Virus record (IMG/VR): IMGVR_UViG_3300026432_000013
Span: 12,180-76,179 of that record
DNA length: 64,000 nucleotides
Reading direction: 5' to 3' (one strand)
Source: a virus
Taxonomy: Duplodnaviria; Caudoviricetes
Part shown: piece by piece, positions 34,129 to 51,044 of the stretch
Position numbering within the stretch: the first letter of the stretch is position 1
How the letters are laid out: the number at the start of each line of letters is the position of its first letter
Program-made: the position numbers and the translations under genes
Notes under the pieces: model-generated
Told to the model about the DNA's origin: nothing
Database searches by the model: none
Seen by the model: only the letters and a program-made list of their open reading frames with translations

Positions 34129-34237
34129 ACTCATCATACCTTTCTGTCTTGAACGCCTTCACAATTATTAAAGCAAGGCACACAATTTTTTCTCCACCAT
34201 CTCTTAGTATCGTGGGGTTCAACAACCTGTTCGACAT

Positions 34238-34269
34238 AAAAAAAGGTCAAGAAACGGGAATCGTCTCCT
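34238..34269 (-). promoter_or_regulatory. Middle promoter overlapping a terminator
   Basis: TcAGGAGAcgA-16-TTTTTTT; stem GGTCAGGA/TCTTGACC. Confidence 0.7.
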
Positions 34270-37793: not shown

Positions 37794-38102
37794 CTACTCT
37801 GCTTTAGGAGCAAAGTCTTCTACTTTTAAGCCTTTTACAGCTTTCTTTAAATCTTCACCAGCTTTGATACGAACGCCTACAGTAGCAGCGATTTCCATTG
37901 GCTCTTTCTTAATAGGGTCAAAACCTTTACGTGGTGCACGGTATGCAGGCTCTACTCCCCAGAAACCAGTTAATTGTAACTTTTCACCTTTTTGTAGAGT
38001 TTCTACAGTGATTTCTTTAAGCGCAGTAAACACTTTGTTTACATCCACTTGAGTTAATCCAGTACGTACAGAGATAGCTTTTACAGTTTCTTGTTTATTC
38101 AT
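37794..38102 (-). CDS. TF1: TF1, hmU-DNA-preferring HU homologue
   Basis: HU fold with RKGFDP (Phe in place of the HU Arg, as in TF1 F61) and C-terminal GLKVEDFA extension. Confidence 0.9.
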   Translation of the reverse strand: MNKQETVKAISVRTGLTQVDVNKVFTALKEITVETLQKGEKLQLTGFWGVEPAYRAPRKGFDPIKKEPMEIAATVGVRIKAGEDLKKAVKGLKVEDFAPKAE

Positions 38103-38203
38103 TTTAAATTCCTCCTAAGGATACTTGTTATAGTAAAAGTCAAAGTATTGAAAGTCTCATGGTAACCGCCAGTGAGCTTCTCCCCTTGTGACCCTTCTGA
38201 CTT

Positions 38204-38234
38204 AAAAAAACCGTCTCACAAAATCTTTTCTCCC
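38204..38234 (-). promoter_or_regulatory. Middle promoter for TF1
   Basis: GGGAGAaaA-15-TTTTTTT. Confidence 0.7.
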
Positions 38235-38271
38235 CTGATAGGGGAGAGTGTTTATCATTATCTCCCCAGTA

Positions 38272-38967
38272 CTATTGCTCTAGGAAGAGCATCTTGTCTT
38301 TTGAGTAATCTGGAACATTTTTATCCACCCATATTTTGAATACATTAGGGAAGTTGTCTCTAACATACGTCATATACAGGATTCCATAATTCGTAAGGTC
38401 AGCTATAGCATCAATCTTGCTCTCCCCTACCTGCTCAGTAGTCAATCTACCCGTTCTTAACCCCTCTTCAAGAAGGTTTAGGGTACTAACTGCACCCTCT
38501 ATCTCATCGTTGGTCATCTTATCTAGGCGGTCATATTTGCGGTCAATGTTTGCCATGATACCACGTATTTCCCCTTTGCCTTTCCAAGATGAGCCATAGT
38601 ACTTCTCTTTGTCATACTGGATTGCCATTAACAACGTCACAATCTCAGGTAGCTTACTATTATCTGGTTGGCTTGGTAACCCTTCCATCCACCTAGTCAT
38701 CTTCTGTGCAATGGCTTCAATATCCATATTAGCAGGTGGGATAGGTGCAGTAGTTAAGCGTTCAACAGTCTCTACTAAAGTAATACTATTGATATGAAGC
38801 CACTCTGACTCATACGCTCCTGCTCCTACCTTAAATCTCACTGACCCTCCATTAGCTATAGTGGATGAAGCGTTATCCGAATTAAGAATAGCTATGTCTA
38901 CAATCTCAAAATGTGCCAATGAATTTCCTGCTACGTACACCTTGTCTCCAATTTTAGGGAAGAACAT
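38272..38967 (-). CDS. SPO1 gp30-like protein with MazG-like nucleotide-modification-associated domain
   Basis: DK..YYGSSW..ANIDRKYDRL..GES..D..ADL.NY. Confidence 0.7.
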   Translation of the reverse strand: MFFPKIGDKVYVAGNSLAHFEIVDIAILNSDNASSTIANGGSVRFKVGAGAYESEWLHINSITLVETVERLTTAPIPPANMDIEAIAQKMTRWMEGLPSQPDNSKLPEIVTLLMAIQYDKEKYYGSSWKGKGEIRGIMANIDRKYDRLDKMTNDEIEGAVSTLNLLEEGLRTGRLTTEQVGESKIDAIADLTNYGILYMTYVRDNFPNVFKIWVDKNVPDYSKDKMLFLEQ

Positions 38968-38971
38968 ACAA

Positions 38972-39352
38972 TCACTCTCCATATATGTGTTTTTCGATTG
39001 CTAACCAATCGACTTTATATCCAATTGACTTATCGTCAATATAAATATCAGCACCAACTTTTCTAGCTACATTTGGTTCATATATTGCATTCACTTCAGG
39101 TAGTTGGTCATTTACAGCACACCAGATATGACCTAACTCATTTGCTTTTAGGAACGCTAACGCCTCATCTAGGGGTGCTCCAGTACGACAAGTCCATAGA
39201 ATTAAACGAACACCATCTTCATATAATCTCTCTAGTACTCGTTTACACTCTGGCTGTAATACTAGCTTATGCCCCATGTCAGGTTCTGTGCTAATCGTTC
39301 CATCAAAATCTACTGCCAATATAATCTCTCCGTCTAATAGTGCTTTACCCAT
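38972..39352 (-). CDS. HAD-family phosphatase (putative dTMP/nucleotide phosphatase)
   Basis: AVDFDGT, ILWTCR, K..ADIYIDDK. Confidence 0.88.
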   Translation of the reverse strand: MGKALLDGEIILAVDFDGTISTEPDMGHKLVLQPECKRVLERLYEDGVRLILWTCRTGAPLDEALAFLKANELGHIWCAVNDQLPEVNAIYEPNVARKVGADIYIDDKSIGYKVDWLAIEKHIYGE

Positions 39353-39447
39353 TAAAACACTCCCTCTCCAAAAAAAAAAATAGCGAACAGGTCAACCGCC
39401 CGTTCGCCTTAAAAAAAGAGGAAGTGTCCCAACTTCTCTCTCCTGCA

Positions 39448-40620
39448 CTATCCGTTCGTGCGTTCGATGTAAAGAACCTTGTCGTAATCCCAGCCCTCGT
39501 ATAACATCTTGAAGTCTGACAAGTCCTTATATTTAGGATACAAGAATCGTAGACAAGACAGTTTCCAAGAGCAGGCAGGCATATTATCTAGTGCCGCACA
39601 CACGATATGCCAGCTACGACCTTCCTTATGCGCTCTATATGCAAACATTGCAGAAAATGCCATTCGTAGGTAATCATCAGGGATAGAGTTAATGTGGTTT
39701 ATTACATCCACATACCATTCTCCAGCATATGAAGTTGGGTCATCGAACCTAGGATTAATGTCAGTAAAGAATTCATCTAGGTGGTCATGGAATGAATCAA
39801 AATCACTAGACATTCTAGGCTCATTGCTGAATGTGAATTGTTGTACTTGTGGTACTTCACGTCCAACTAAAGTAGTAGAAGTCAATCCATAAGCATTCAA
39901 CACTTTATCAGTCTCTTTTGCACCATAGTCATCAAGATAGATATGAAGAGAGTCAGTAATCTGATTGTATGTTCCCATAGGAATACCTAACCAGCTTGAC
40001 ATACACTCTAAAACAGTAGCAAATTGACAAAGGTTGGCACCAAAGGTACCCCAATGCAGGTCGTTACTACGGTTCATTACTGATAAATCTAGTTTACCTT
40101 TACGTATCTTGAAAGTCAAGAGAAGGTTACATGGTCTATCTTTTGTCTCATTGCGTGCATGGTCAAAGATAGGATTATAAATCACTGCTACTGCTTGGCG
40201 TGTGTCAGGGTCAGCTTTAAGCTTCTCATACACATCGTATAACTGGTCAAAAGGATTCATGATAAAGCCATTCGCATCACTCTTGTTCCAGTGACGTAGA
40301 CGCTCACCATATGGAGCATTAAAGAATTCACCGTCATCAGAGAACTGTTCCATGCTAGCATTATAATCCAGTAACCATTTCACATCACTTCTACCACCCA
40401 TAATCCACGCTGTAGATTCAGCTAGTTGGAAGAATGGATTTACTACTCGTCCTAACAAGAATGTTAAACGGTTAGCAGGTTCAGTAAACTCTAAGATTAC
40501 GGGTCGAATCTCCTTTACCGCTTTCCCACGTGGTTTTACTACATCACCTTCTAAACATAGAGTGAACAATGCATCCATGTACATTTGGGATGGGTTATTG
40601 CCTGTAAATATCTCAGCCAT
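39448..40620 (-). CDS. dUMP hydroxymethylase (SPO1 gp29 homologue)
   Basis: Thymidylate-synthase fold (YGERLR, DTRQAV, RPCN, RSNDLHWGTFGANLCQF, DSLHIY), closely matching recalled gp29; TF1 nearby. Confidence 0.88.
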   Translation of the reverse strand: MAEIFTGNNPSQMYMDALFTLCLEGDVVKPRGKAVKEIRPVILEFTEPANRLTFLLGRVVNPFFQLAESTAWIMGGRSDVKWLLDYNASMEQFSDDGEFFNAPYGERLRHWNKSDANGFIMNPFDQLYDVYEKLKADPDTRQAVAVIYNPIFDHARNETKDRPCNLLLTFKIRKGKLDLSVMNRSNDLHWGTFGANLCQFATVLECMSSWLGIPMGTYNQITDSLHIYLDDYGAKETDKVLNAYGLTSTTLVGREVPQVQQFTFSNEPRMSSDFDSFHDHLDEFFTDINPRFDDPTSYAGEWYVDVINHINSIPDDYLRMAFSAMFAYRAHKEGRSWHIVCAALDNMPACSWKLSCLRFLYPKYKDLSDFKMLYEGWDYDKVLYIERTNG

Positions 40621-40650
40621 ATAAAATTCCTCCTTTGAGTGAGTTCGCTT

Positions 40651-40682
40651 AATTAAAGCGTTCAAACTCAAAGTTGTCTCCC
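40651..40682 (-). promoter_or_regulatory. Middle promoter
   Basis: GGGAGAcaA-16-TTTAATT. Confidence 0.65.
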
Positions 40683-40796
40683 TCTGTATGGAAAACCTAG
40701 CCCCTTTACTTACTAAAAATTTAAAAGTATACTTAAAATTCTTAAAAATTTAAAGAGAACTTTTAAATACTCTTTTTAATAAAAAAGACAAAAAAT

Positions 40797-40824
40797 AAAA
40801 AGAGTACCCAAAGGGTACTCTTTT
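40797..40824. terminator. Bidirectional terminator
   Basis: AAAAAGAGTACCC-aaa-GGGTACTCTTTT. Confidence 0.85.
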
Positions 40825-40833
40825 AAGCGTTGC

Positions 40834-41148
40834 TTACTGGTAGCGACTGTTGTTATCAGTGTACCCACCAGATGTCTTCTTGCCAGTTGTGTGTAGGTTA
40901 CGAATAACGTCACCTTGCTCTAACTGGTGAATCATTTCCTCATAGAACTTAACCGCAGCACGAGCATTAGGTAATGTCTCATCTACTAGTAATGGTGCAC
41001 CTGCAACAGGAGCTAAGTACACATCTACTAGAGCTACAGTTACCTTGTTAGCCACATCGTCTAACTCAACCTTAACACTGTCAGTTCCGTAGCGCTTTTG
41101 TTGTTCTACATAAGCATTTACATCATGGATATATTTATTAATAGCCAT
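40834..41148 (-). CDS. Hypothetical protein
   Basis: SD GGAGGTG; has its own terminator. Confidence 0.75.
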   Translation of the reverse strand: MAINKYIHDVNAYVEQQKRYGTDSVKVELDDVANKVTVALVDVYLAPVAGAPLLVDETLPNARAAVKFYEEMIHQLEQGDVIRNLHTTGKKTSGGYTDNNSRYQ

Positions 41149-41377
41149 TTCTACACCTCCAAAATAACTTGTCTAAATAAATTATCATGAAGGAGACTAT
41201 GGTATAATACACAGTAAAAGAGAGACACAAGGTAGCCACAGAACTAGGGAATCAGCTATAAGGTCATGAACGAGGTAGGCTACATTTCCTTACACTATTC
41301 ACTATGCCAGTCTGTAGTGCGTTGCTCTCTCTTCCTTTTTCTTTTTTCCCTCCCCTCCGTGGGGATTCCTTGATGCC

Positions 41378-41479
41378 TTACCCAAATACTTCCACTGCCG
41401 CTTTTATGAAATAGAGTACTATAAGCCCTCTTATTGAAAAGTCAAAGATGCGTTCACCTAGTGCTTTCTTCTCTTCCAT
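41378..41479 (-). CDS. 33-aa hydrophobic micro-protein (not in ORF track)
   Basis: MEEKKALGERIFDFSIRGLIVLYFIKAAVEVFG; SD AGGGGGTGG. Confidence 0.55.
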   Translation of the reverse strand: MEEKKALGERIFDFSIRGLIVLYFIKAAVEVFG

Positions 41480-41785
41480 TGATAGCCACCCCCTGAACTT
41501 AGATTTCCCCAACCCATCACAGGAATATTCTTCCGTATTAACAGGAAGCAATGGCATTGGACTCGTCCCTAGTAATGTGACAAGCTAGACCAACGTAAAG
41601 TTAAAGCAAACCCGAAACGACCCCCCGAAACGAGTCACCGTCACTTTTGAGTAACGGGGGGTGCATGCTAGTACACTCTTTGATTCTCTAGGTGTCCCAA
41701 TCCCCACCAAAAGCGAAACATTTTTTCTTACTCTGGGGTGTCTCCGCACTGGGTTGCGAAAATCATGAGTATGGAGGAGATTAGA

Positions 41786-42262
41786 ATGACGCAACTTGTA
41801 GTTAAATGTAACCACAATCAGGTGAGCAAACCTAAGAAGTCTGAAGTAATTAAGTGGGATTTCATAGAACCTCAGTATGAAAATAGATCACGACATACTG
41901 GAGAACTAGAGCAGGGTAGAAAGTCACTGGTTAGATGGTTCGGTGAGATGATATTACCTACAGCAATCGTTACACGCCTAGGAATGAGAGCTACACATGC
42001 ATTTGCAGCTACTCAGAATGCCAACGACCTACGCAGAGGATTCATGGATATAGTTGACATATTCACTGCAATAGCAGAGCCAATACTTTGGTTCTACGCT
42101 CTGATAGGGTTTATCATGATGGCAACAGGTAAGAGTAAGGATGCTGGATGGAACAGAATTAAGAACGTAGGATATGCTTACATTGGAATCTCAATGTTAC
42201 CTACTATGTTCCAGATGCTACGTTGGATTTCCAATATCATCAGATCATCTATATCTTTCTAG
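41786..42262 (+). CDS. TrbC/VirB2 pilin-like membrane protein (tentative)
   Basis: Start MTQLV (SD GGAGGAG); AFAA processing-like site, then two TM helices with a GKSKDAGW..IKN loop. Confidence 0.55.
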   Translation: MTQLVVKCNHNQVSKPKKSEVIKWDFIEPQYENRSRHTGELEQGRKSLVRWFGEMILPTAIVTRLGMRATHAFAATQNANDLRRGFMDIVDIFTAIAEPILWFYALIGFIMMATGKSKDAGWNRIKNVGYAYIGISMLPTMFQMLRWISNIIRSSISF

Positions 42263-42274
42263 GAGGAATCAGAT

Positions 42275-43312
42275 ATGAGTAGAGCAATTACATCTGTAGA
42301 CTTGGGGTTCATGTACACAAATGCTATCATCAATGGTAAGCCAGCTGTAATCAAGTCGGTTGTAGGTGTTGGAAGAGATAGAAAGCTAAAGGAATTCAAT
42401 AAGAGTGTAGCAGACTCCTTTGAAGTAGACCAAAAGCACGATGACATTGAGTATAGAAATGCAGACGGCACACACTTTGTATCAGACTTGGCAATATCTC
42501 AATCTAGAATCGTTAAACACTCCCTAACTGGTGACCGCTTTGATAGTGAGGTTACAAAAATACTACTAGGAACTGTTCTCGGTCTAGGTATGGGTGGTGG
42601 GTCGGTGGAAACTAACTTTGTATCAGGGTTACCAGTTAGTCACTTTGACCAGTATAAGGAAGCTATTAAGAGCCTGTTTATGGATAACAAGCATGAGTAC
42701 CATCTAGAGTCTTCAGGTATCAAAATCAATGGCTCAGTTAAGGGTAAGAAAGGATTATTCGTACCACAACCGTTTGGGGCTTTAATGGACAGAATACTGG
42801 ATGATAAAGGTGAGATATCAGACACTAACTTAGCTAAGTCGAGGGTAGCAGTAGTTGATATAGGGTTTGGAACTACAGACATCTACGTGTGTGAGGTCTT
42901 CAATAACATTGAGCATCTGACTACTAGCTTCAGCGTTGCTATGAACTCTGTAAACCAAGTCGTCTCAGATAATATATTAGACCACACAGGAGTAAACTTC
43001 CCACTGTATAAGGCTGAACATGTAGTTCAAAGCAGAGTACTGAAGTCTGGAACTAAGATATACGACATGGCTCCAACTATTGATTGGGCATGTGAGAACG
43101 TAGCTTATGACATCACTAATAGACTGCATAACTTTTGGAAGGATGAAATAAACTTCCTAGACAAGATAATATTTGCTGGTGGTGGAGGGGTTTCACTGTA
43201 CCCTCATATGAAAGACCACTTCCCAAACCCAGAACTAGCTAAGAGCGGTCAGTTTGCAGTAGCTAAAGGGTATCACAAGTGGGGTGTGAGAAATCTGATT
43301 AGGGGTGTATGA
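42275..43312 (+). CDS. parM: ParM/StbA-family actin-like ATPase
   Basis: VDLGF..N, VSGLPV, VPQPFGA, VVDIGFGTTD, FAGGG, Q.AVAKGY. Confidence 0.9.
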   Translation: MSRAITSVDLGFMYTNAIINGKPAVIKSVVGVGRDRKLKEFNKSVADSFEVDQKHDDIEYRNADGTHFVSDLAISQSRIVKHSLTGDRFDSEVTKILLGTVLGLGMGGGSVETNFVSGLPVSHFDQYKEAIKSLFMDNKHEYHLESSGIKINGSVKGKKGLFVPQPFGALMDRILDDKGEISDTNLAKSRVAVVDIGFGTTDIYVCEVFNNIEHLTTSFSVAMNSVNQVVSDNILDHTGVNFPLYKAEHVVQSRVLKSGTKIYDMAPTIDWACENVAYDITNRLHNFWKDEINFLDKIIFAGGGGVSLYPHMKDHFPNPELAKSGQFAVAKGYHKWGVRNLIRGV

Positions 43313-43313
43313 T

Positions 43314-43694
43314 ATGGCTGATAAACAGTATACATTCAGAACAACTAAGTCTACAGAGTGGCTGGAAGACCATCTAAATGATATGAAGGATAGAAGCGGT
43401 TTTATCAGGGAGTGTGTATTATTTGCAGTAGAGCATGACCCAAAGCTGGCACAGAGGTTATATGATAACATCACCTCAGAGATAATGTCACAGACTCCTA
43501 TCAAATCACATCAGAGACCAGAAAACCCTAGCAAACCCAAGAAAAAAGTATCACATCAGAAGCCTCAGCTCCCAGTGTCAGATAAGAAGCCTGCACCTCA
43601 GATAAAAGAATCCAAGCCAAAGATACTTGTACAGCAGGACAAAGAGATAGACCTAGACAAGGCTTTGAGTGCAAATACTAAACAATTTCAATAG
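43314..43694 (+). CDS. Ribbon-helix-helix adaptor (ParR-like)
   Basis: YTFRT..WL..HL..DRSGFIRE N-terminus, disordered K/P-rich tail, coupled to parM. Confidence 0.7.
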   Translation: MADKQYTFRTTKSTEWLEDHLNDMKDRSGFIRECVLFAVEHDPKLAQRLYDNITSEIMSQTPIKSHQRPENPSKPKKKVSHQKPQLPVSDKKPAPQIKESKPKILVQQDKEIDLDKALSANTKQFQ

Positions 43695-43705
43695 GAGGGA
43701 TTTAC

Positions 43706-43840
43706 ATGGAGAAGAAACCAGTAAGCAATAAAGTGCTATACGTTGTGGGTGCAGGATTAGTTACAGCAGGTATGGTAACTATCAAGGTGTTGACATGGTC
43801 AGTTAACAAGGCAGTAGAAGTACTCTTGGAGGTACAATAA
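43706..43840 (+). CDS. 44-aa single-TM micro-protein (not in ORF track)
   Basis: SD AGGAGGG; MEKKPVSNKVLYVVGAGLVTAGMVTI... Confidence 0.7.
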   Translation: MEKKPVSNKVLYVVGAGLVTAGMVTIKVLTWSVNKAVEVLLEVQ

Positions 43841-43841
43841 C

Positions 43842-43985
43842 ATGTTCTGGGTTAGGTTGGTTGGAAGTATATGTAAGTCGCTCTTGATAATGGGAGCTAT
43901 TGAATATATAGCTCCTGGATTCTCATATCAAGTGGCTTACAAAACTGTAAAGGTGATAATGGGTATGTGGATGGGAGGACACTAA
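43842..43985 (+). CDS. 47-aa hydrophobic micro-protein (not in ORF track)
   Basis: SD GGAGGT; 1-nt gaps to both neighbours. Confidence 0.65.
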   Translation: MFWVRLVGSICKSLLIMGAIEYIAPGFSYQVAYKTVKVIMGMWMGGH

Positions 43986-43986
43986 T

Positions 43987-44187
43987 ATGAATGTACGCAA
44001 GATGGCATACTCTTGTATCTATGTAGTTATCTCGTTAGCTGTACCAGAGTTATCTGGAAATGGTCTCAAGTTCATCGGTGGTATAATGGGTGGGATATTT
44101 GATGCAACGTTTGAATCTATCGGTGAGAAGGCTAGGGAAGAAATGATGTATGTGTTACCAGAATTTATGCAAGGATGGTTTAAATAG
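43987..44187 (+). CDS. 66-aa membrane micro-protein
   Basis: SD GGGAGG; hydrophobic and Gly-rich. Confidence 0.7.
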   Translation: MNVRKMAYSCIYVVISLAVPELSGNGLKFIGGIMGGIFDATFESIGEKAREEMMYVLPEFMQGWFK

Positions 44188-44198
44188 GAGGGGTTAAG

Positions 44199-46940
44199 AT
44201 GAATGCACAACCAGAGGTTAATATTGTTAATCCAACTACTAAGGAGAAGATACGTTTAGTAGAGAAAGAGGAAATACAGTATGTGACACTGGAGGTTATT
44301 CCTAGTAAGATGACGTCTAATGCAGGAGTTAGGTGGCTTATAACAGAGTTTGCAACACTGTTCACTCCACTAAACAGACGTATCAACTTTGCAGGTGGTA
44401 GACTGGTCTACACTCCAGAGATGAATATATGGTGGGAAGTAATAATACACAAAGGTCAGGTGAAGTTCTATCTGGTTATACCTGATAAAGACCACTTAAA
44501 GGATGCACTTACTAGGCAGATAAGAAGATGCTGGAAACGTTCTACAGTAAGGGAGGTGAAAGACCCTCTGCCTAATCTTCATATGGACAATACTAGTGTC
44601 ACCAAGATGTCCTTACAGAATCATCCAGCGCTATCCTTGGATGTAGAGAACCCTAAGTATACTCCATTGGACTCTATCTTGACGACTACTAACTATCTCA
44701 AGGATGAGGATTATGCGATACTCCAACTAGGGATGAGACCATTAGGGGAGTCTTGGAATGAGACTATGGTTGGAATCAGCGAAGATATCAAGGAAAAGAA
44801 CACCATTCCTAAGAAAAAAGGTACGATGTTTACATCAAAAAACGTCTTGGTGGGCTTGGCTAACGTTGTGGGTCTTGTTCTTGAAGAACTTATGAACATA
44901 GTAGGTGATTTCCTCATACCTGGCTGGGAGATGAATAGTGAGTTCAGAGACTCACTAAAGAGAAAGGCACATGAGGGACGTTCTAAATCATCATTACGTA
45001 AGAAGTATAGTGAAGGATTCAAGATTAACTTTAATGCAGTAGCTGTATCCGAGGATGAAGATAGACGTAGAGCTATCACAAGAAGCCTTACAGCAGGTTT
45101 CCACCCTCTAGAAGGGGATAATAAGATAGTGACGAAAGAAGTAGAGGGTAGAGACAAGGTGAAAGCCCTCAAGAATATTAGAGACCGTAAGATGGTTGTT
45201 AAGATGAATGGAGATGAGCTATGCTCCCTAGAATTAGCTAAGATAATACAGGTACCAGACCAAGTGTTACAGTTAGAACACCAAGGAGAGTTAGACACTG
45301 TTCAACATAGAAGTTTAGCAGATATACCTAAGGAGATATTTGAAGATGACGGTAAGGGTATACCGTTTGCGACATATGAAGACACAGATGGTGAAACTAA
45401 GACAGTATACTTCGCAGGAGACAACCCTAACCTACTGTGTATGTCACGTGTGGTAATAGGAGAGCCAGGTAGTGGTAAGTCCACATTTGCAGCTAGCTTT
45501 GCACTAGATGCACTGGAGAAAGGTTATGGGTCTATGGTAGTAGATGCAGCAGATGGTAAATTGGCACAGAGGATACTGAATCTAGTTCCACCAGATAAGA
45601 GGGATAAGGTAAAGATAATAGACTTGCTAAATTCAGAGAACCCTGTAGGGTTGGGCTGGAATGAAATATTCAGAGGTAGAAATACTGACGTTATTGAGGA
45701 TTTAATTACTGAAGAGATTCTGTCATACGTTGAGCTTGTAGCAGGTACAGAACTAAGCATGACATCTAGAATCTGGGTTGAGAATGCTGTACGTGCAGTG
45801 TACACTACTCCAGATGCAACGTTACAGGATATAGAGAATATGTTGAGTAATGCAGAATATCGTGCTAGTGTTATTCCTCATATTGATGACCCAGAGTTGC
45901 GTAGTGACTGGGAATACTTCCATGAGAAGATGTCTAAAGAGGACAGAAAAGCTATATATGAGCAAGCATTCAGACGTCTAGCAGTTGTAATGCGTAAGAA
46001 GGCTCTAAAGAGTTTCATACTTCAGAAGCCTAAAAAGGATGAGAATGGTGAATATCTAGTAGACTTCAGAAAGTGGATGGATGAAGGCTGTCTAGTATTA
46101 GTCAAGGCTAATGAAACACTAGGTGAAGAGAATCAGACCGCACTAGTATCATTCCTAATATCTAAGTTTAATTTGGCTATCATTAGTAGGGAAGATATTG
46201 AGGAGGAGGATGACCGTAAGCCATGCTTCATAGTACTAGATGAACCAGACCACTATATCAAAGGTAGTGAACGCTGGAGAAGTATGTTAACTCGTTATAG
46301 AAAGTATCGTTGTGGCTTAACATTTATGTTCCATGGATGGGAGCAGTTAAAAAAGGCGGATAGAGAGTTACCTAAGATGATACGTAAGGCTGGTCCACAC
46401 TATGTTATATTCCAAACAGATAGAGATAACTTGAAAGAACTGGAGTCTGTTATTCAACCAGAATTTAGCGTAGACCAAATATCAAAGGGTATGCCTAAGC
46501 ACCATGCAATCGTCAAGCTAAAGATGTACAATAAGAAGGGTGAAGCTACTCCACCATTTATGGTTAAGGCTATTAACGAGCCTGAAAAGAGATACAAGAA
46601 ATATGACAATAATGACTTATACGATATAAATGCAAGGCTTATGGGAAGACCAAAACAGGAAGTGCTGAATGAGTTGTTCAGATACAAGAACAATGCCGAG
46701 TTCTCTGTCGAACTAGTAGATGGAGAGGACAAAAAAGGCAAAACCCCACCAAAAAACACCCCTATTGAAATTGATGAAGATGAGCGTAGAGAACAACATG
46801 AAGAGGAACTGCGTACACTAGAGAAAGATGCTGGTGCACTAGTAACTAAGCTATTAGAGGATGGTGATGAGGAAGGTGCAGAGGAAATAATGGAATTACT
46901 AGAGGAAGTATTATCAGATGATGGATTGGAGGAAGGTTGA
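44199..46940 (+). CDS. Coupling-protein/VirB4/HerA-FtsK-type P-loop ATPase
   Basis: GEPGSGKST Walker A, VVDAADG, FIVLDEPDHY Walker B, RKYR..L..HGWEQL motif, acidic tail. Confidence 0.85.
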   Translation: MNAQPEVNIVNPTTKEKIRLVEKEEIQYVTLEVIPSKMTSNAGVRWLITEFATLFTPLNRRINFAGGRLVYTPEMNIWWEVIIHKGQVKFYLVIPDKDHLKDALTRQIRRCWKRSTVREVKDPLPNLHMDNTSVTKMSLQNHPALSLDVENPKYTPLDSILTTTNYLKDEDYAILQLGMRPLGESWNETMVGISEDIKEKNTIPKKKGTMFTSKNVLVGLANVVGLVLEELMNIVGDFLIPGWEMNSEFRDSLKRKAHEGRSKSSLRKKYSEGFKINFNAVAVSEDEDRRRAITRSLTAGFHPLEGDNKIVTKEVEGRDKVKALKNIRDRKMVVKMNGDELCSLELAKIIQVPDQVLQLEHQGELDTVQHRSLADIPKEIFEDDGKGIPFATYEDTDGETKTVYFAGDNPNLLCMSRVVIGEPGSGKSTFAASFALDALEKGYGSMVVDAADGKLAQRILNLVPPDKRDKVKIIDLLNSENPVGLGWNEIFRGRNTDVIEDLITEEILSYVELVAGTELSMTSRIWVENAVRAVYTTPDATLQDIENMLSNAEYRASVIPHIDDPELRSDWEYFHEKMSKEDRKAIYEQAFRRLAVVMRKKALKSFILQKPKKDENGEYLVDFRKWMDEGCLVLVKANETLGEENQTALVSFLISKFNLAIISREDIEEEDDRKPCFIVLDEPDHYIKGSERWRSMLTRYRKYRCGLTFMFHGWEQLKKADRELPKMIRKAGPHYVIFQTDRDNLKELESVIQPEFSVDQISKGMPKHHAIVKLKMYNKKGEATPPFMVKAINEPEKRYKKYDNNDLYDINARLMGRPKQEVLNELFRYKNNAEFSVELVDGEDKKGKTPPKNTPIEIDEDERREQHEEELRTLEKDAGALVTKLLEDGDEEGAEEIMELLEEVLSDDGLEEG

Positions 46941-47766
46941 TATGAAGGGTATCTATAAACGTCCAGAGGTGAAGCAGATAACTAGAGAGTGGGTTTATAA
47001 TAACTGCAACAACATTACAGAGAGGGACATGGGGTTGCTAAGGTTACTGGCTGATAAGAGGGTGCTAAAGAGAGACCAGATACAACGTCTTTACCCAGAA
47101 TTTGCTAGTACTGAGAGGCTTAACAATAGGCTGAAGATACTGTTCAACAAGCATGTGATAGATAGAATAGTTCCCCCTGTACCTTTGGGTCAGGGGAGTG
47201 CTCAACAGCACATATGTATTGACAGGGCAGGAATAATATTACTGGATATGGAACGATACAGTAAGCCAATCAAGTATGACTCTAATGGTCAGCGAATACT
47301 AGTAGACGGGTTTCACCACAGAGTTGCCATTAACGAATGTGAATGCTTGATAAGGGAAATTCTTAGAGACCTAGAGGGAGAGATGATATATTATGAGACG
47401 GAAGAGAAGTGCCACTTTAATGACAGTTTCATTAAGCCCGACATTGTTTGTGTATTTAAGTGTAAGGGTAAAGGATATGGATTCTGCATTGAGGTCGACA
47501 TGGGTACGGAGAGGCTACCAGTTATCAAGAACAAGATTGACAATTACAAAGATTACTACGTGTCCAAACAGTGGGCTAAGAAAGAATGGGCTAAAGTATT
47601 CAAAAATCCTACGTTTCCACGTGTTCTATTGTTAACAAGGGATAAGTTCACTAAAAGGGTTAATGACATGAGACACTATACCCACGGCTCGATGGTTAGA
47701 TTCTTGAGTGGCACACAGGAGGACTTCACAAGCATACTAAATTCAATATTAAAAGGTAGCCTGTAA
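46918..47766 (+). CDS. Replication-relaxation (Replic_Relax) family wHTH plus PD-(D/E)xK nuclease
   Basis: TERD..LL..L...VL..QI..RL..L wHTH; H..AIN; KPD..IEVDMGTE..KIDNY. Confidence 0.85.
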   Translation: MMDWRKVDMKGIYKRPEVKQITREWVYNNCNNITERDMGLLRLLADKRVLKRDQIQRLYPEFASTERLNNRLKILFNKHVIDRIVPPVPLGQGSAQQHICIDRAGIILLDMERYSKPIKYDSNGQRILVDGFHHRVAINECECLIREILRDLEGEMIYYETEEKCHFNDSFIKPDIVCVFKCKGKGYGFCIEVDMGTERLPVIKNKIDNYKDYYVSKQWAKKEWAKVFKNPTFPRVLLLTRDKFTKRVNDMRHYTHGSMVRFLSGTQEDFTSILNSILKGSL

Positions 47767-47780
47767 TGGGCTACCTTTTT
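47751..47780. terminator. Bidirectional terminator closing the island
   Basis: AAAAGGTAGCC..GGCTACCTTTTT. Confidence 0.85.
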
Positions 47781-47781
47781 G

Positions 47782-48630
47782 TTATGCATATAGTAGTCTC
47801 CCACATTTTCCACAAGTAGTTGGCTCTTGATTATCATAAGATATACCAAATGGTGGTTCTTCTGTGTGATACTCGGTAACGTTATGGTCTGGAAGGTCTA
47901 TGATATTTACTCGTCTTCCCTTAACAAACGTATCCAACTTGGACAGTATCTCTGCTTTACATCTAGGCTGATAGATTTCATGTTCGTCCAGTAAGTAGTA
48001 CTTCTGGATATGCTCCATGAACTTAGGGTTAATCATCTGCCATCGGTCTACCATTGCCTCTAGGAATTCAATAGTGAATGCTGGGAAGTCTACTGTAATA
48101 GAGGATACCAGATTCTTATTCATTTCCACTAGTTGTAATAAGTCTAATGGCTTCATTATGTGAGGGAAGTAGTCTACGTGACACGACACGAAAACCTTCC
48201 ACGCTTTTGCTATGAACATCATCTCCCTGATGTCTTTCATCTCGGAGGACTCCACCTGTACCAACTTCCGTGCAGAGTCATCTAGGGAATTAATAACAAC
48301 CCTCAAAGTTGAGCGGTTCTGTTCGCCCATCTTCTTAACAAGGTAGGTAGGTATCGCCTTCCCTGTCTTTAGAATCACTGGTGTATTGTTATCAAGCACT
48401 AAGTTAATCTTCTCTTCCCAGTTCGTCACTAGGTGAGTAAAGTATATAGGGTTAGGTAGATCCAACAGTAAGTAGTCTTTAAGGTCACCTAGAGACATTC
48501 TATCTCCGCACACCGCATATGCGTGGTCATTGTGCTTAATGATTTTTTGATTATAGCAGTTACAAAAAGATACAGATATAGGACTTCTATTTACGGAGAT
48601 AGGAGTCCTGATTATTTCATTGTTATTCAT
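47782..48630 (-). CDS. Degenerate radical-SAM (SPL/Rv2578c-like) protein (tentative)
   Basis: SP....FCNCY, ILKTGK, INSLDDSARKL..; lacks the full CxxxCxxC. Confidence 0.5.
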   Translation of the reverse strand: MNNNEIIRTPISVNRSPISVSFCNCYNQKIIKHNDHAYAVCGDRMSLGDLKDYLLLDLPNPIYFTHLVTNWEEKINLVLDNNTPVILKTGKAIPTYLVKKMGEQNRSTLRVVINSLDDSARKLVQVESSEMKDIREMMFIAKAWKVFVSCHVDYFPHIMKPLDLLQLVEMNKNLVSSITVDFPAFTIEFLEAMVDRWQMINPKFMEHIQKYYLLDEHEIYQPRCKAEILSKLDTFVKGRRVNIIDLPDHNVTEYHTEEPPFGISYDNQEPTTCGKCGRLLYA

Positions 48631-48689
48631 ATGTCTTACCTCCTGAAACTTAATGAAAGGGTGTACCCTGCTTGGCACACCCTTTTATA

Positions 48690-49151
48690 TTACTGGTACG
48701 ATTTCTTAAGATTCATAATCAGACGCATACGTGTGATAGAATCATTAGCGTAGTCTTTCCATTCTACATTACGCTCTGTTGCTAAGTCCTTCAGTGCCTC
48801 AAAGCTCATAGGCTTGAAGTCTGGCATATCTGCCGAATACTGGACAGGGTCTTTCTTCTTAGCTTCTGTTTTAGGTTTAGCAGGTGTACTAGCAGGTTTT
48901 TTCGGTGCTGGCTTGTCCGACTTTGTTGCAGGCTTAGTTGTTGCTTTAGTCTCCTTAGGAGTTTCCACTACAACCTTCTTCTCTTTCTTACGTGGTGTTG
49001 GGATATTAGCTCCCTCCATACGTGCCTTACACTGACCTCTTACATCACACTTCTGACATTCAGGTACACTCTCATCATGTGCAATACCAAAACAAGTACT
49101 TTCTTGTAACGCTTCTAATAATTTTGAGTCTATATTTCCAAAGAAACTCAT
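48690..49151 (-). CDS. SPO1 gp27 homologue
   Basis: MSFFG.ID.KLLEA..CFG..DESVPEC.KCDV...CKA..PDFKPMS..ERNVEWK.Y...ITRMRLIM. Confidence 0.9.
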   Translation of the reverse strand: MSFFGNIDSKLLEALQESTCFGIAHDESVPECQKCDVRGQCKARMEGANIPTPRKKEKKVVVETPKETKATTKPATKSDKPAPKKPASTPAKPKTEAKKKDPVQYSADMPDFKPMSFEALKDLATERNVEWKDYANDSITRMRLIMNLKKSYQ

Positions 49152-49185
49152 AACTACATTTCCCCCATTCACATGTAATCACTTA

Positions 49186-49217
49186 TAAAAGAAGTGATTT
49201 ATTTGATTTTTTCTCCT
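49186..49217 (-). promoter_or_regulatory. Middle promoter for the gp27 homologue
   Basis: TtAGGAGAaaA-16-TCTTTTA. Confidence 0.6.
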
Positions 49218-49231
49218 AAACTGCTATCTCT

Positions 49232-49873
49232 CTAGTACTGTAATGCCAACGGTGCTTTCTCCCTAATCTCTTGCATTACGTTGTCATACTGCTTACCTGT
49301 TAACCCTAAAGCTCGTTGTATATGTTTCATTCTAACTGTTGTGTCCTTAGGGATGTTAATACGTTTGCCCTGTGATTTAAGCATGTTCTTACGTGCAGTA
49401 TCAGCCCATACCTGGAATAGTGTTGCTTCACTAGGCTCAATAAGTTCTTCTAGGAACTCTCTTGATATCTCACTTAGCATATCCTTTAGCTTCTCCATGC
49501 CATTATCTCGGTACATTCTTTCTACTACATCATAGCCTTTGCTGTCTTCTATGTTTGTAAACGCATCTTCTAAGTCTATGTAGGTAAACTTGCTCCCTCC
49601 ACCTTTGTTGTCCATTTGTCTGTATAGAGACTTACGGAAGATAGGAGCAAATTCGTCCATGTCTTTATTCTCACCCACGCACCACTTATCCCAGCAATCA
49701 TACAACTTAATCATACCTTCTTGATACAAATCCTCTGCCGATAACATACCGTCCAATGTACTGTTCTGTGCTTTTTGTCTTGCTGCATACTTCACTAAGT
49801 TGTTGAACTGCTTGACTACTGCGTCCCAAGATAATTTAAGTGCTTCACCGTTTCTACATAGCTCGTTAGACAT
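49232..49873 (-). CDS. Middle-gene sigma factor, SPO1 gp28 homologue
   Basis: LKLSWD.V..QF.NL, EDLYQEG..KLYDCW.KWC..ENK.MDEF.PIFRKSL, MLKSQGKR.N.PK.TTV.MKHI. Confidence 0.93.
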   Translation of the reverse strand: MSNELCRNGEALKLSWDAVVKQFNNLVKYAARQKAQNSTLDGMLSAEDLYQEGMIKLYDCWDKWCVGENKDMDEFAPIFRKSLYRQMDNKGGGSKFTYIDLEDAFTNIEDSKGYDVVERMYRDNGMEKLKDMLSEISREFLEELIEPSEATLFQVWADTARKNMLKSQGKRINIPKDTTVRMKHIQRALGLTGKQYDNVMQEIREKAPLALQY

Positions 49874-49900
49874 ATTCAATTTTCCCCCAATTAGATATAA

Positions 49901-50179
49901 TTACTTCACGTTAATAATACGTTTGCCAACATCTTGTAAAGCTTTCCCCATCATTAGGGCTTGGCGACCTGTCATCATAAATCCCTTACCAGGTACCCAC
50001 TCACCGTCCCTACTCTCTCTCCACCACTTTTGAGCTGAAATACGAATGCCTAAGTTTTCATCCCTAACCATTAGTACTCTCAACTTCTGTGTGCTGGAGA
50101 TAGGGATTGACAAACAATCCTCTAGAATCTCAGCCTTTAACTCAGGTTTGTACTCTTGTACCTTCTTGTTGTTTTCCAT
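49901..50179 (-). CDS. PC4/YdbC-like ssDNA-binding protein (tentative)
   Basis: ISAQKWW...DGEWVPGKG pattern. Confidence 0.6.
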   Translation of the reverse strand: MENNKKVQEYKPELKAEILEDCLSIPISSTQKLRVLMVRDENLGIRISAQKWWRESRDGEWVPGKGFMMTGRQALMMGKALQDVGKRIINVK

Positions 50180-50234
50180 AATACCCTCTCCTTTTGGCTC
50201 TGGCTAACTGCCACTCGTTGGTGGCGTTGAATTC

Positions 50235-50263
50235 ATTTTTGCAATTTTGACACCTTTTGTCAA
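50235..50263 (-). promoter_or_regulatory. Sigma-A promoter of the gp28 operon
   Basis: TTGACA-17-AAAAAT with TG. Confidence 0.7.
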
Positions 50264-50351
50264 TCTCTCTTTCCTAGGGGTGGGGGAGACCCGATGTTCC
50301 TAGCTCAAGAGTAATAAAAAAGAAGAGGGGAAAACCCTCCCCTCTCCTGAC

Positions 50352-51044
50352 CTATTTAGGTAATTTACCTGCTTTCTTTAGAGCCATTATTGCGTTCATA
50401 CGGTCAATTGGATTATTGTTAGTCTTCTTCACGTCTAGTTTATTAGCAGCTACCATTTTGAATAAATCCTCTGTAGACAGGTCACCATATTTGGCTTTCT
50501 TTTTCTTACCCTCTTTAGGCTTAAACATCTCTGGGAAGAAGAAGCGTTGCATAGCCATTGAGATTCTCATACGATGGATATTAGCATGTTCTGTTTCTGT
50601 CCACGTTAGACCTAGTGCCTTAGCAAAGTACTCTACCGTTTGAGTATCAATGTCTTTATACCAATCCTTAAACTCCTTCAGTGCCTTAAATTCTGGTATA
50701 GCTTCTAAGATTTCCTCTTTAGTGTTGACAATATCCTCGGTTCTTACATAGTTTATTGGTTGTGGCTCATCATCCTCTTCCTCTACCGTTCCTACTTCCT
50801 CTTCCACTTCCTTAGCAATAGCTTCATCCGTCTTAGCTTTAAAGTTATCCCATTGCTCATCTTCAGTCTCAGCCTTGATACCATCACCCACCATCTCTGT
50901 ATTTACTAGTTTTACCTTACCTTCTAGTGCGCCACCCTCTTGAATATCACGTTTTAACACCTTTGGTACATTTAGTACTGCTGCTACAGCCTTTAAGTCT
51001 GGCACGTATTGTCCTTCTACCTCATACATTTGTTGATTAGTCAT
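50352..51044 (-). CDS. Fourth gp44-family paralogue (SPO1 gp25.1-like)
   Basis: YEVEGQ.V..LK.VA.VL.V..V.K N-terminus; NIHRMRISMA, KKKKAKYGDLSTEDL, RMNAIMALKKAG. Confidence 0.85.
   Translation of the reverse strand: MTNQQMYEVEGQYVPDLKAVAAVLNVPKVLKRDIQEGGALEGKVKLVNTEMVGDGIKAETEDEQWDNFKAKTDEAIAKEVEEEVGTVEEEDDEPQPINYVRTEDIVNTKEEILEAIPEFKALKEFKDWYKDIDTQTVEYFAKALGLTWTETEHANIHRMRISMAMQRFFFPEMFKPKEGKKKKAKYGDLSTEDLFKMVAANKLDVKKTNNNPIDRMNAIMALKKAGKLPK

Follow-up and report, generated by a model that had tools for sequence, protein, structure and literature searches.

In a 64,000-nt stretch of phage DNA (positions 12,180-76,179 of the 76-kb Caudoviricetes record IMGVR_UViG_3300026432_000013; hereafter the window), eight open reading frames (ORFs) on the + strand, which we call g1 to g8, run from 41786 to 47766, and all flanking genes lie on the minus strand. 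The operon is a CP-51-type copy of the operon that phage SPO1 carries as genes 29.1 to 27.3, an accessory module whose genes stem from conjugation and plasmids; it encodes a soluble ATPase (g7), a nuclease of a relaxase family (g8), a ParM-type actin-like protein with a candidate adaptor (g2 and g3), and a set of membrane proteins (g1 and g4-g6), the first of them probably VirB2/TrbC-like. An earlier annotation made from the sequence alone (the original prediction) had described eight tightly coupled genes opposite in strand to their surroundings, and the ORF map confirms that this eight-gene unit is real: the gaps between successive genes from g1 to g8 measure 12, -8 (or +1 with the ATG at 43314), 11, 1, 1, 11 and -23 (or +1 with the ATG at 46942) nt. 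GGAGG-type Shine-Dalgarno (SD) sequences stand upstream of most of the genes, and the sign of the GC skew flips to positive across 42-48 kb and nowhere else in the window. The features of the locus are the following.

41558..41785, no strand: divergent intergenic region upstream of g1, with a hairpin, tandem repeats and SPO1-conserved blocks
41786..42262, + strand: g1, 158 aa, basic, probably a VirB2/TrbC-like membrane protein (SPO1 gp29.1), from a weak profile match and its hairpin build
42275..43312, + strand: g2, 345 aa, ParM-type actin-like protein (SPO1 gp27.9), from Pfam, PHROG, PDB and motifs
43305..43694, + strand: g3, 129 aa (126 aa from the ATG at 43314), basic, candidate ParR-like adaptor (SPO1 gp27.8), from position, size, charge and tail
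43706..43840, + strand: g4, 44 aa, one hydrophobic helix (SPO1 gp27.7), phrog_15178
43842..43985, + strand: g5, 47 aa, one hydrophobic helix (SPO1 gp27.6), phrog_23813
43987..44187, + strand: g6, 66 aa, one hydrophobic helix (SPO1 gp27.5), phrog_15417
44199..46940, + strand: g7, 913 aa, soluble ATPase (SPO1 gp27.4, SPP1 gp32), from Pfam 38 DUF8128 and its motor fold
46942..47766, + strand: g8, 274 aa (282 aa from the ATG at 46918), Replic_Relax/MOBC-type nuclease (SPO1 gp27.3), from Pfam, PHROG and conserved residues
47751..47779, no strand: two-way intrinsic terminator candidate, 12-bp stem and 5-nt loop containing the g8 stop codon

The hairpin at 47751-47779 is preceded by an A run and followed by a T run and could thus terminate both convergent units, in agreement with the bidirectional terminator that had been placed there from the sequence; the consensus terminator scan does not include it among its calls. 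At the other end of the operon, the divergent intergenic region holds a hairpin with 8-nt arms (41620-41627 and 41655-41662) and two tandem copies, at 41611-41636, of the 13-nt repeat CCGAAACGA, which has no further copy in the window. Taking AGGAGA, 15-19 nt and TTTNTTT as the SPO1 middle-promoter consensus, we found no exact middle or late promoter consensus upstream of g1, as had been noted before for middle promoters. A scan for sigma-A-type promoters returned 22 observed against 23 expected, and an Rfam search of 40.6-48.8 kb gave no match.

A soluble ATPase of the VirB4/T4CP/HerA superfamily

The g7 product consists of an N-terminal domain of about 400 aa (DUF8128), a motor of the type found in VirB4, type IV coupling proteins (T4CPs) and HerA, and an acidic C-terminal tail, with a Walker A motif, GEPGSGKS, at residue 421 and a Walker B motif, FIVLDE, at residue 677. 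Family libraries place it only broadly: Pfam-A returned P-loop matches alone, with no VirB4 or T4CP model at cut-off, NCBIfam gave nothing above cut-off for any of the operon products, and a PDB sequence search with g7 and its profile produced P-loop-level matches with weak matches to HerA and DotL. Homologues of g7 carry PF26449 (DUF8128 in the Atlas), the family comprises 4418 clusters at 50% identity (E<=1e-3), and look-alike clusters in the Atlas bear TrwB_AAD_bind, TraG-D_C and T4SS-DNA_transf. Profile comparison with hhalign aligned g7 to the T4CP PcfC (probability 62%, E 7e-5, 291 columns) and its motor alone to a PrgJ-family VirB4 profile (probability 62%, E 7.6e-5); the g7 N-domain against the VirB4 N-domain reached a probability of 0.1%, and a weak language-model lead (0.77) points from the g7 N-domain toward VirB4 N-domain clusters.

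Structure comparison, made with VIA-align on a predicted AlphaFold model of g7 (predicted local distance difference test 88), gave a sharper placement. The motor aligned best to the VirB4 C-terminal domain (CTD) 4ag5 (Z 27.3, root mean square deviation (rmsd) 3.4, 345 of 374 residues), followed by DndH-C (Z 25.8), TrwB (Z 24.4-25.3 over 370-379 residues), HerA (Z 24.2), DotL (Z 23.5) and Cag-beta (Z 22.9). Beyond the motor, full-length VirB4 (TrwK) alone aligned to g7, over 560-569 residues but at an rmsd of 10. FtsK (Z 17.9-18.3) and TcpA (Z 18.0-18.3) aligned over 219-236 residues, the hhalign match to TcpA covered the P-loop region alone, and a terminase PHROG matched at just 2e-4. A translocase of the FtsK/SpoIIIE or terminase type is rejected for g7 on the values of about 18 against 27.3 for the VirB4 CTD and the P-loop-only TcpA match, and the grouping with FtsK and packaging families that would have undone the original prediction is not seen (Z of about 18 against 25-27).

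We conclude that g7 represents a distinct family of the VirB4/T4CP/HerA superfamily. What it shares with VirB4 proteins (TrwK, PrgJ, 4ag5) and with coupling proteins (TrwB, PcfC, DotL) is the motor fold. Its two-domain soluble build resembles that of VirB4, and its gene follows a pilin-like gene and tiny membrane-protein genes in a manner comparable to virB2-virB3-virB4; a coupling protein is suggested by its sequence neighbours and by the relaxase-family gene next door, g8, which overlaps or abuts g7. VirD4-type coupling proteins have an N-terminal transmembrane (TM) anchor, whereas g7 has none in its first 200 residues, its sole hydrophobic segment (210-241) lying inside the soluble N-domain. 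The proposal that g7 is a coupling-type ATPase therefore holds as far as the conjugation superfamily (TrwB at Z 25.3, PcfC at 7e-5), but VirB4 fits equally well (Z 27.3, 7.6e-5), and the comparisons speak neither for nor against the label.

The last 73 residues of g7 (46706-46940) include 28 D/E and are predicted to form two helices after a disordered linker; from its sequence, this acidic C-terminus is reminiscent of the tail by which TraD of the F plasmid binds its partner, likewise at the C-terminus. Residues 418-728 match mad8 of PADLOC, a component of the MADS defence system, at 2.2e-11. A literature search for DUF8128 or for a phage-encoded relaxase or coupling protein found no paper.

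A MOBC-type nuclease and a ParM pair

The identification of g8 as a Replic_Relax protein stands firmly: it matches PF13814 at 1.5e-18 (68 bits, cut-off 25.3) and phrog_9381 at 2e-127. We assign it as a Replic_Relax/MOBC-type nuclease in which an N-terminal winged helix-turn-helix (wHTH) domain precedes a C-terminal PD-(D/E)XK domain with, as judged from the sequence, its catalytic residues kept, P166, D167, E184, D186 and K198 being invariant in four phage lineages together with motifs in the N-terminal helices. The ATG at 46942 is the favoured start because the SD sequence GGAGGAAGG precedes it, and the same start is annotated in phage JL. Members of PF13814, the family of MOBC relaxases, usually have a coupling ATPase as partner (PMC5357655, PMC12857230). 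With the MOBC relaxases TraX of pAD1 and MobC of CloDF13, g8 shares the Replic_Relax family, the wHTH and the acidic and Lys residues of PD-(D/E)XK. Those relaxases are encoded by plasmids or integrative and conjugative elements, whereas g8 belongs to a virulent phage; its nicking activity is predicted, and repeat searches found no origin of transfer (oriT) or repeat set near the operon.

The assignment of g2 to the ParM proteins proved equally robust. Both ALP_N (7e-18) and MreB-like_C (4e-18) match above their Pfam cut-offs, phrog_691 matches at 1e-79, and the pCBH ParM structures 6ixw and 6izr match at 2.5e-24 over residues 4-337, the full length of the protein. The nucleotide-binding motifs are intact (phosphate-1 DLGFMYTN at 9, phosphate-2 DIGFGTTD at 195 and adenosine GGG at 302), and by these sequence features g2 is a true ParM.

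The gene that follows encodes a basic protein, g3, in which a K/P-rich linker connects a short N-terminal domain to a conserved C-terminal tail, D-[IL]-D..L...F. Its start is probably the ATG at 43314 because this agrees with the SPO1 N-terminus. A gene of this kind stands directly 3' of the ParM gene in four lineages, in which the C-terminal Phe is invariant, and we regard g3 as a candidate ParR-like adaptor of ParM. The label of a ribbon-helix-helix (RHH) protein that g3 had been given found no support: there is no Pfam, NCBIfam or PDB sequence match to an RHH fold, and hhalign against the MobC-type accessory protein of pCF10 and the small ParM-adjacent protein of pCW3 (presumed ParR) gave probabilities below 1%. 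The likeness of the pair to ParMRC systems (pCBH ParM, R1 ParM) thus consists of an actin-like ATPase whose motifs are intact and, behind it, a small, basic, tail-bearing putative adaptor, a candidate by position, size, charge and tail; it differs from them in that repeat searches found no centromere array here and in that the ParM pair is absent from some otherwise identical phage operons.

Membrane proteins and secretion-system components

The g1 product carries a leader ending in a signal-peptidase-like site, AFA|A, and then two hydrophobic helices that form a hairpin around a basic loop; the predicted model places helices at 77-114 and 118-156 around the loop GKSKDAGWNRIKN, and a hydropathy plot shows one segment above threshold. 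Its own match to PF18895 (T4SS_pilin) is weak (E=1.2e-3, 19.3 bits, under the cut-off of 26.6). Among its 13 positional homologues, six match T4SS_pilin weakly and one matches TrbC at 1.4e-6, and AFA|A or TFA|E sites are predicted before the hairpin in the homologues. The top structure for the g1 model was the archaeal conjugation pilin 8dfu of Aeropyrum (Z 7.1, 79 of 84 residues), a result tied with unrelated helical hairpins and within the noise for such folds. We consider g1 to be probably VirB2/TrbC-like; the description of a pilin-like product is favoured by the hairpin, the leader and the matches of the homologues, its own profile match falling below cut-off.

Three micro membrane proteins had been predicted as well, and g4-g6 (44-66 aa) each contain one hydrophobic helix. 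In g6, encoded directly upstream of the ATPase gene, the helix is accompanied by a Gly-rich stretch and an amphipathic C-terminus, and a g6-like peptide before the ATPase is kept in several lineages, among them SPO1-like contigs as well as an unrelated element.

Library scans of all eight products detected no VirB6-like protein, VirB8-like protein, wall hydrolase or adhesin; none of the eight is polytopic, and one is an ATPase, whereas known type IV secretion systems (T4SSs) have both VirB4 and a coupling protein. The usual T4SS core is lacking, as had been supposed. A complete conjugative T4SS is ruled out, there being no polytopic channel protein, VirB8, hydrolase or second ATPase.

Relatives and separable parts

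At the nucleotide level, 41500-47900 is 97% identical to Shanette, 96% to JL and 91% to CP-51 (Siminovitchvirus, Spounavirinae), and in the same comparison the ATPase gene aligns at about 71% to SPO1-group phages. Against the latter, the ATPase is 57-58% and the nuclease 50% identical. The SPO1 orthologues stand in the same order (29.1, 27.9, 27.8, 27.7, 27.6, 27.5, 27.4, 27.3) at the shared genome position between dUMP hydroxymethylase and the gp27/gp28 region, and those of JL are gp156-gp149. The order ParM, adaptor, pilin-like protein, small TM protein, ATPase and Replic_Relax recurs in the Tsamsavirus Izhevsk, in 0305phi8-36 and in metagenomic contigs; in 0305phi8-36, otherwise alike in this order, a single micro-peptide and a polytopic membrane protein take the place of the three micro-peptides of our operon. 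The module of Izhevsk, a Tsamsa-type phage, contains a Peptidase_M23 gene (2.9e-17, L004:3991-4713) between the pilin-like gene and the ATPase, and genes for HNH homing endonucleases are inserted inside it.

Reduced forms of the operon exist. SPP1 gp32 is a full-length g7 homologue (profile E 3.5e-171) and is preceded by small proteins with two or three TM helices (gp31.1 and gp31.2), as membrane proteins precede g7; SPP1 has no ParM, adaptor or Replic_Relax, which shows that membrane proteins plus ATPase form the minimal unit. An SPO1-like metagenomic phage (L027:3585-8238) carries the operon at the same position without ParM and adaptor. Searches with tblastn found ATPase homologues in 145 phage records and Replic_Relax homologues in 65, all of the latter from Bacillus phages and nearly all, among the matches listed, under or beside the ATPase gene. 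The module is accordingly made of three separable parts (g2 and g3; g1, g4-g6 and g7; and g8), the SPP1 set and the ParM-less contig arguing for a composite of sub-modules and not for one obligate machine. The idea that the eight genes form a single obligate machine has to be given up.

Nearly all of the 145 ATPase records come from phages of endospore formers. Tallied by the first word of the organism name, they comprise Bacillus (131), Geobacillus (5), Deep-sea (2), Lysinibacillus (2) and one each of Brevibacillus, Alicyclobacillus, Terrisporobacter, Clostridium and Microcystis; phages of Staphylococcus, Listeria and Enterococcus are absent from the 145. Beyond these phages, DUF8128 ATPases occur in prophages and in plasmids, including large plasmids of C. 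botulinum. Among the plasmid matches listed, the full-length ATPase with its N-domain is found in Clostridium, Bacillus and Alicyclobacillus, several of the Bacillus cases looking like plasmid-prophages, and matches in Streptomyces, Embleya, Herpetosiphon, Laceyella and Aneurinibacillus plasmids are partial and cover mostly the motor. In the C. botulinum plasmid pBT-22100019 (L006:8603-11403), a TrbC/VirB2 family gene overlaps the start of a gene for an 800-aa ATPase homologue; RefSeq itself names the product of the overlapping gene "TrbC/VirB2 family protein", and further T4SS genes are absent within 9 kb of the pair. More distant DUF8128 ATPases occur in Actinomycetota, Saccharimonadota and Chloroflexota, and in a phylum sample of 401 genomes the ATPase had a match in 16, at full length in 3.

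Discussion

The operon and its reading in terms of DNA translocation are already known, having been published since 2012. Pathria et al. (2012) reported what they called a "DNA translocation operon" (orf200-207) from phage 0305phi8-36, with a MobC-like relaxase (orf200), a TraG-like ATPase without TM helices (orf201), a VirB6-like protein (orf203) and an MreB-like protein (orf207), and named SPO1 gp27.3, gp27.4 and gp27.9 as homologues of its products (PMC3357382). For SPP1 gp32, HHpred likeness to TrwB, VirB4 and FtsK and the lack of a TM anchor have been reported, and Godinho et al. (2018) proposed that gp32 and the membrane proteins gp31.1 and gp31.2 form a translocon (PMC6316719). New here are the structural placement of the ATPase, the recognition of the VirB2-like protein and the ATPase as a core pair that occurs outside phages too, the separability of the ParM pair, and the lack of support for an RHH fold in g3.

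We tentatively favour, with confidence a little below even, the view that the operon encodes an accessory unit for positioning and translocating DNA at the membrane, with spore entrapment as its possible purpose. In such a unit, g8 would bind and cut or nick a site on the phage DNA; g3 and g2 might then carry the g8-processed DNA toward the membrane or a cell pole, where an oligomer of g7, held by g1 and g4-g6, could pump or hold it. That a phage actin can move viral DNA has an earlier example in the actin-like AlpC of the AlpAC system of prophage CGP3 (PMC4446434). By analogy with 0305phi8-36 and SPP1, the module is likely to be dispensable for ordinary lytic growth.

The entrapment that the original prediction had invoked for CP-51-type phages is documented: CP-51 DNA is trapped in spores, an observation that goes back to Thorne (1968) and Cohen et al. 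(1973), as cited in PMC4113786, and SPO1 forms virospores, which were quantified in 2026 in a study that loosely links the ParM gp27.9 to spore entrapment (PMC12991052). Together with the bias of the ATPase toward phages of endospore formers, the entrapment of CP-51 and SPO1 makes delivery to the forespore the most attractive role. That, in a sporulating host, this unit in fact brings the phage genome into the forespore or across a septum is nonetheless rather unlikely on present evidence. How the genome of a virulent phage enters a spore is an old question, for which this operon is the most obvious candidate machinery, and forespore loading, if true, would be the missing active mechanism of virospore formation. 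A broader proposal, which we regard as unlikely, is that a VirB2-like hairpin and a soluble DUF8128 ATPase constitute a widespread single-ATPase DNA translocon of monoderm mobile elements, which in SPO1- and CP-51-type phages, with ParM and a MOBC nuclease, would load the genome into the forespore. A conjugation-type ATPase acting with a pilin-like protein without a T4SS core would, if true, be a new minimal form of DNA transport.

Several observations weigh against DNA positioning and translocation at the membrane in the service of entrapment. With no VirB6, VirB8 or hydrolase among the products, it is hard to see how DNA would cross the envelope. No centromere-like array, iterons or oriT-like repeats were detected at the operon by Tandem Repeats Finder or a repeat finder, and the operon has no sporulation promoter and no Spo0A box (13 observed in the window against 11 expected). 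Deletion of the 0305phi8-36 operon left plaque size and yield unchanged (PMC3357382), and SPP1 gp32 is non-essential and expressed early, from the PE5 unit (PMC6316719). The SPP1 set lacks ParM, adaptor and Replic_Relax altogether, the SPO1-like metagenomic phage lacks ParM and adaptor, and a profile search in which SPO1 and SPP1 served as positive controls found no ATPase homologue in Bastille, a Bacillus phage of the Herelleviridae. Since distant DUF8128 ATPases have hosts in other phyla, the link with spore formers concerns the close subfamily alone and may reflect shared gene pools, and a cross-tabulation of the ATPase with SpoIVA among the 401 genomes has no power because SpoIVA is present in 322 of them. 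The mad8 match and the DndH-C alignment, finally, tie the g7 family to defence-type HerA-like ATPases as well.

Plasmid-style maintenance in a carrier or pseudolysogenic state, in which ParM and its adaptor would partition the genome, Replic_Relax would prime replication by nicking, and the tethering or resolution of copies would fall to the ATPase and the membrane proteins, is an improbable alternative. It agrees with the PHROGs labels of g8 ("replication initiation by nicking") and g2 ("partition protein"), with the position of the module beside Xer/integrase genes and plasmid replicases in Izhevsk and in B. cereus plasmid-prophages, and with the reading of the Izhevsk authors (PMC7685451), but SPO1 and CP-51 are described as virulent (PMC4113786), repeat searches revealed no centromere-like array, and the most widely kept part of the module, the VirB2-like protein and the ATPase, is left unexplained.

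Still less probable is a conflict system, in which a membrane-bound ATPase would block or expel foreign DNA (superinfection exclusion, anti-plasmid or anti-conjugation activity) and the nuclease would cut the intruder. The proximity of the motor to HerA-type and DndH defence ATPases (Z 20-26) and to PADLOC mad8 (2e-11), the early expression of the SPP1 homologue from the PE5 unit, and the non-essential character and patchy, moron-like distribution of the gene would all suit such a role; yet the ATPase domain alone matches PADLOC, with no full system, ParM has no obvious part to play, and the nuclease comes from a site-specific relaxase family with a wHTH.

To our knowledge, transfer of a 138-kb lytic phage genome has never been reported, and with one ATPase against the VirB4 and coupling protein of known T4SSs, and no VirB6-like, VirB8-like, hydrolase or adhesin gene in the operon, the particle-free spread of phage DNA from cell to cell by a stripped-down conjugation is very unlikely, even though the VirB2-like protein, the VirB4/T4CP-type ATPase and the MOBC nuclease form a combination that stems from conjugation, an M23 wall peptidase is present in addition in Tsamsa-type modules, as is a polytopic membrane protein in 0305phi8-36, and Pathria et al. 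have put the proposal, for biofilms, in print (PMC3357382).

Metatranscriptome contigs and signals elsewhere in the window

The stretch 38000-51000 is contained, at 97-100% of sampled words, in 23 soil metatranscriptome runs from separate studies (2018-2019), in contigs that reach 43 kb; these contigs are evidence without strand, level or timing, and DNA carry-over is possible. The 23 soil runs could reflect one sampling campaign, a bloom, DNA carry-over or contamination. In one run, a contig covers 40808-47718 and the next begins at 47824, a break that coincides with the terminator; contigs of three runs break near a hairpin at 40.8 kb, and other runs bridge all of these positions.

The sole exact match to the SPO1 middle-promoter consensus in the window lies on the minus strand at 34238-34269, and a perfect Spo0A box, TGTCGAA, at 34230-34236 directly adjoins it. 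Contigs of three metatranscriptome runs have 3 or 4 extra A after position 39369, a homopolymer length difference, and this position falls between two minus-strand ORFs.

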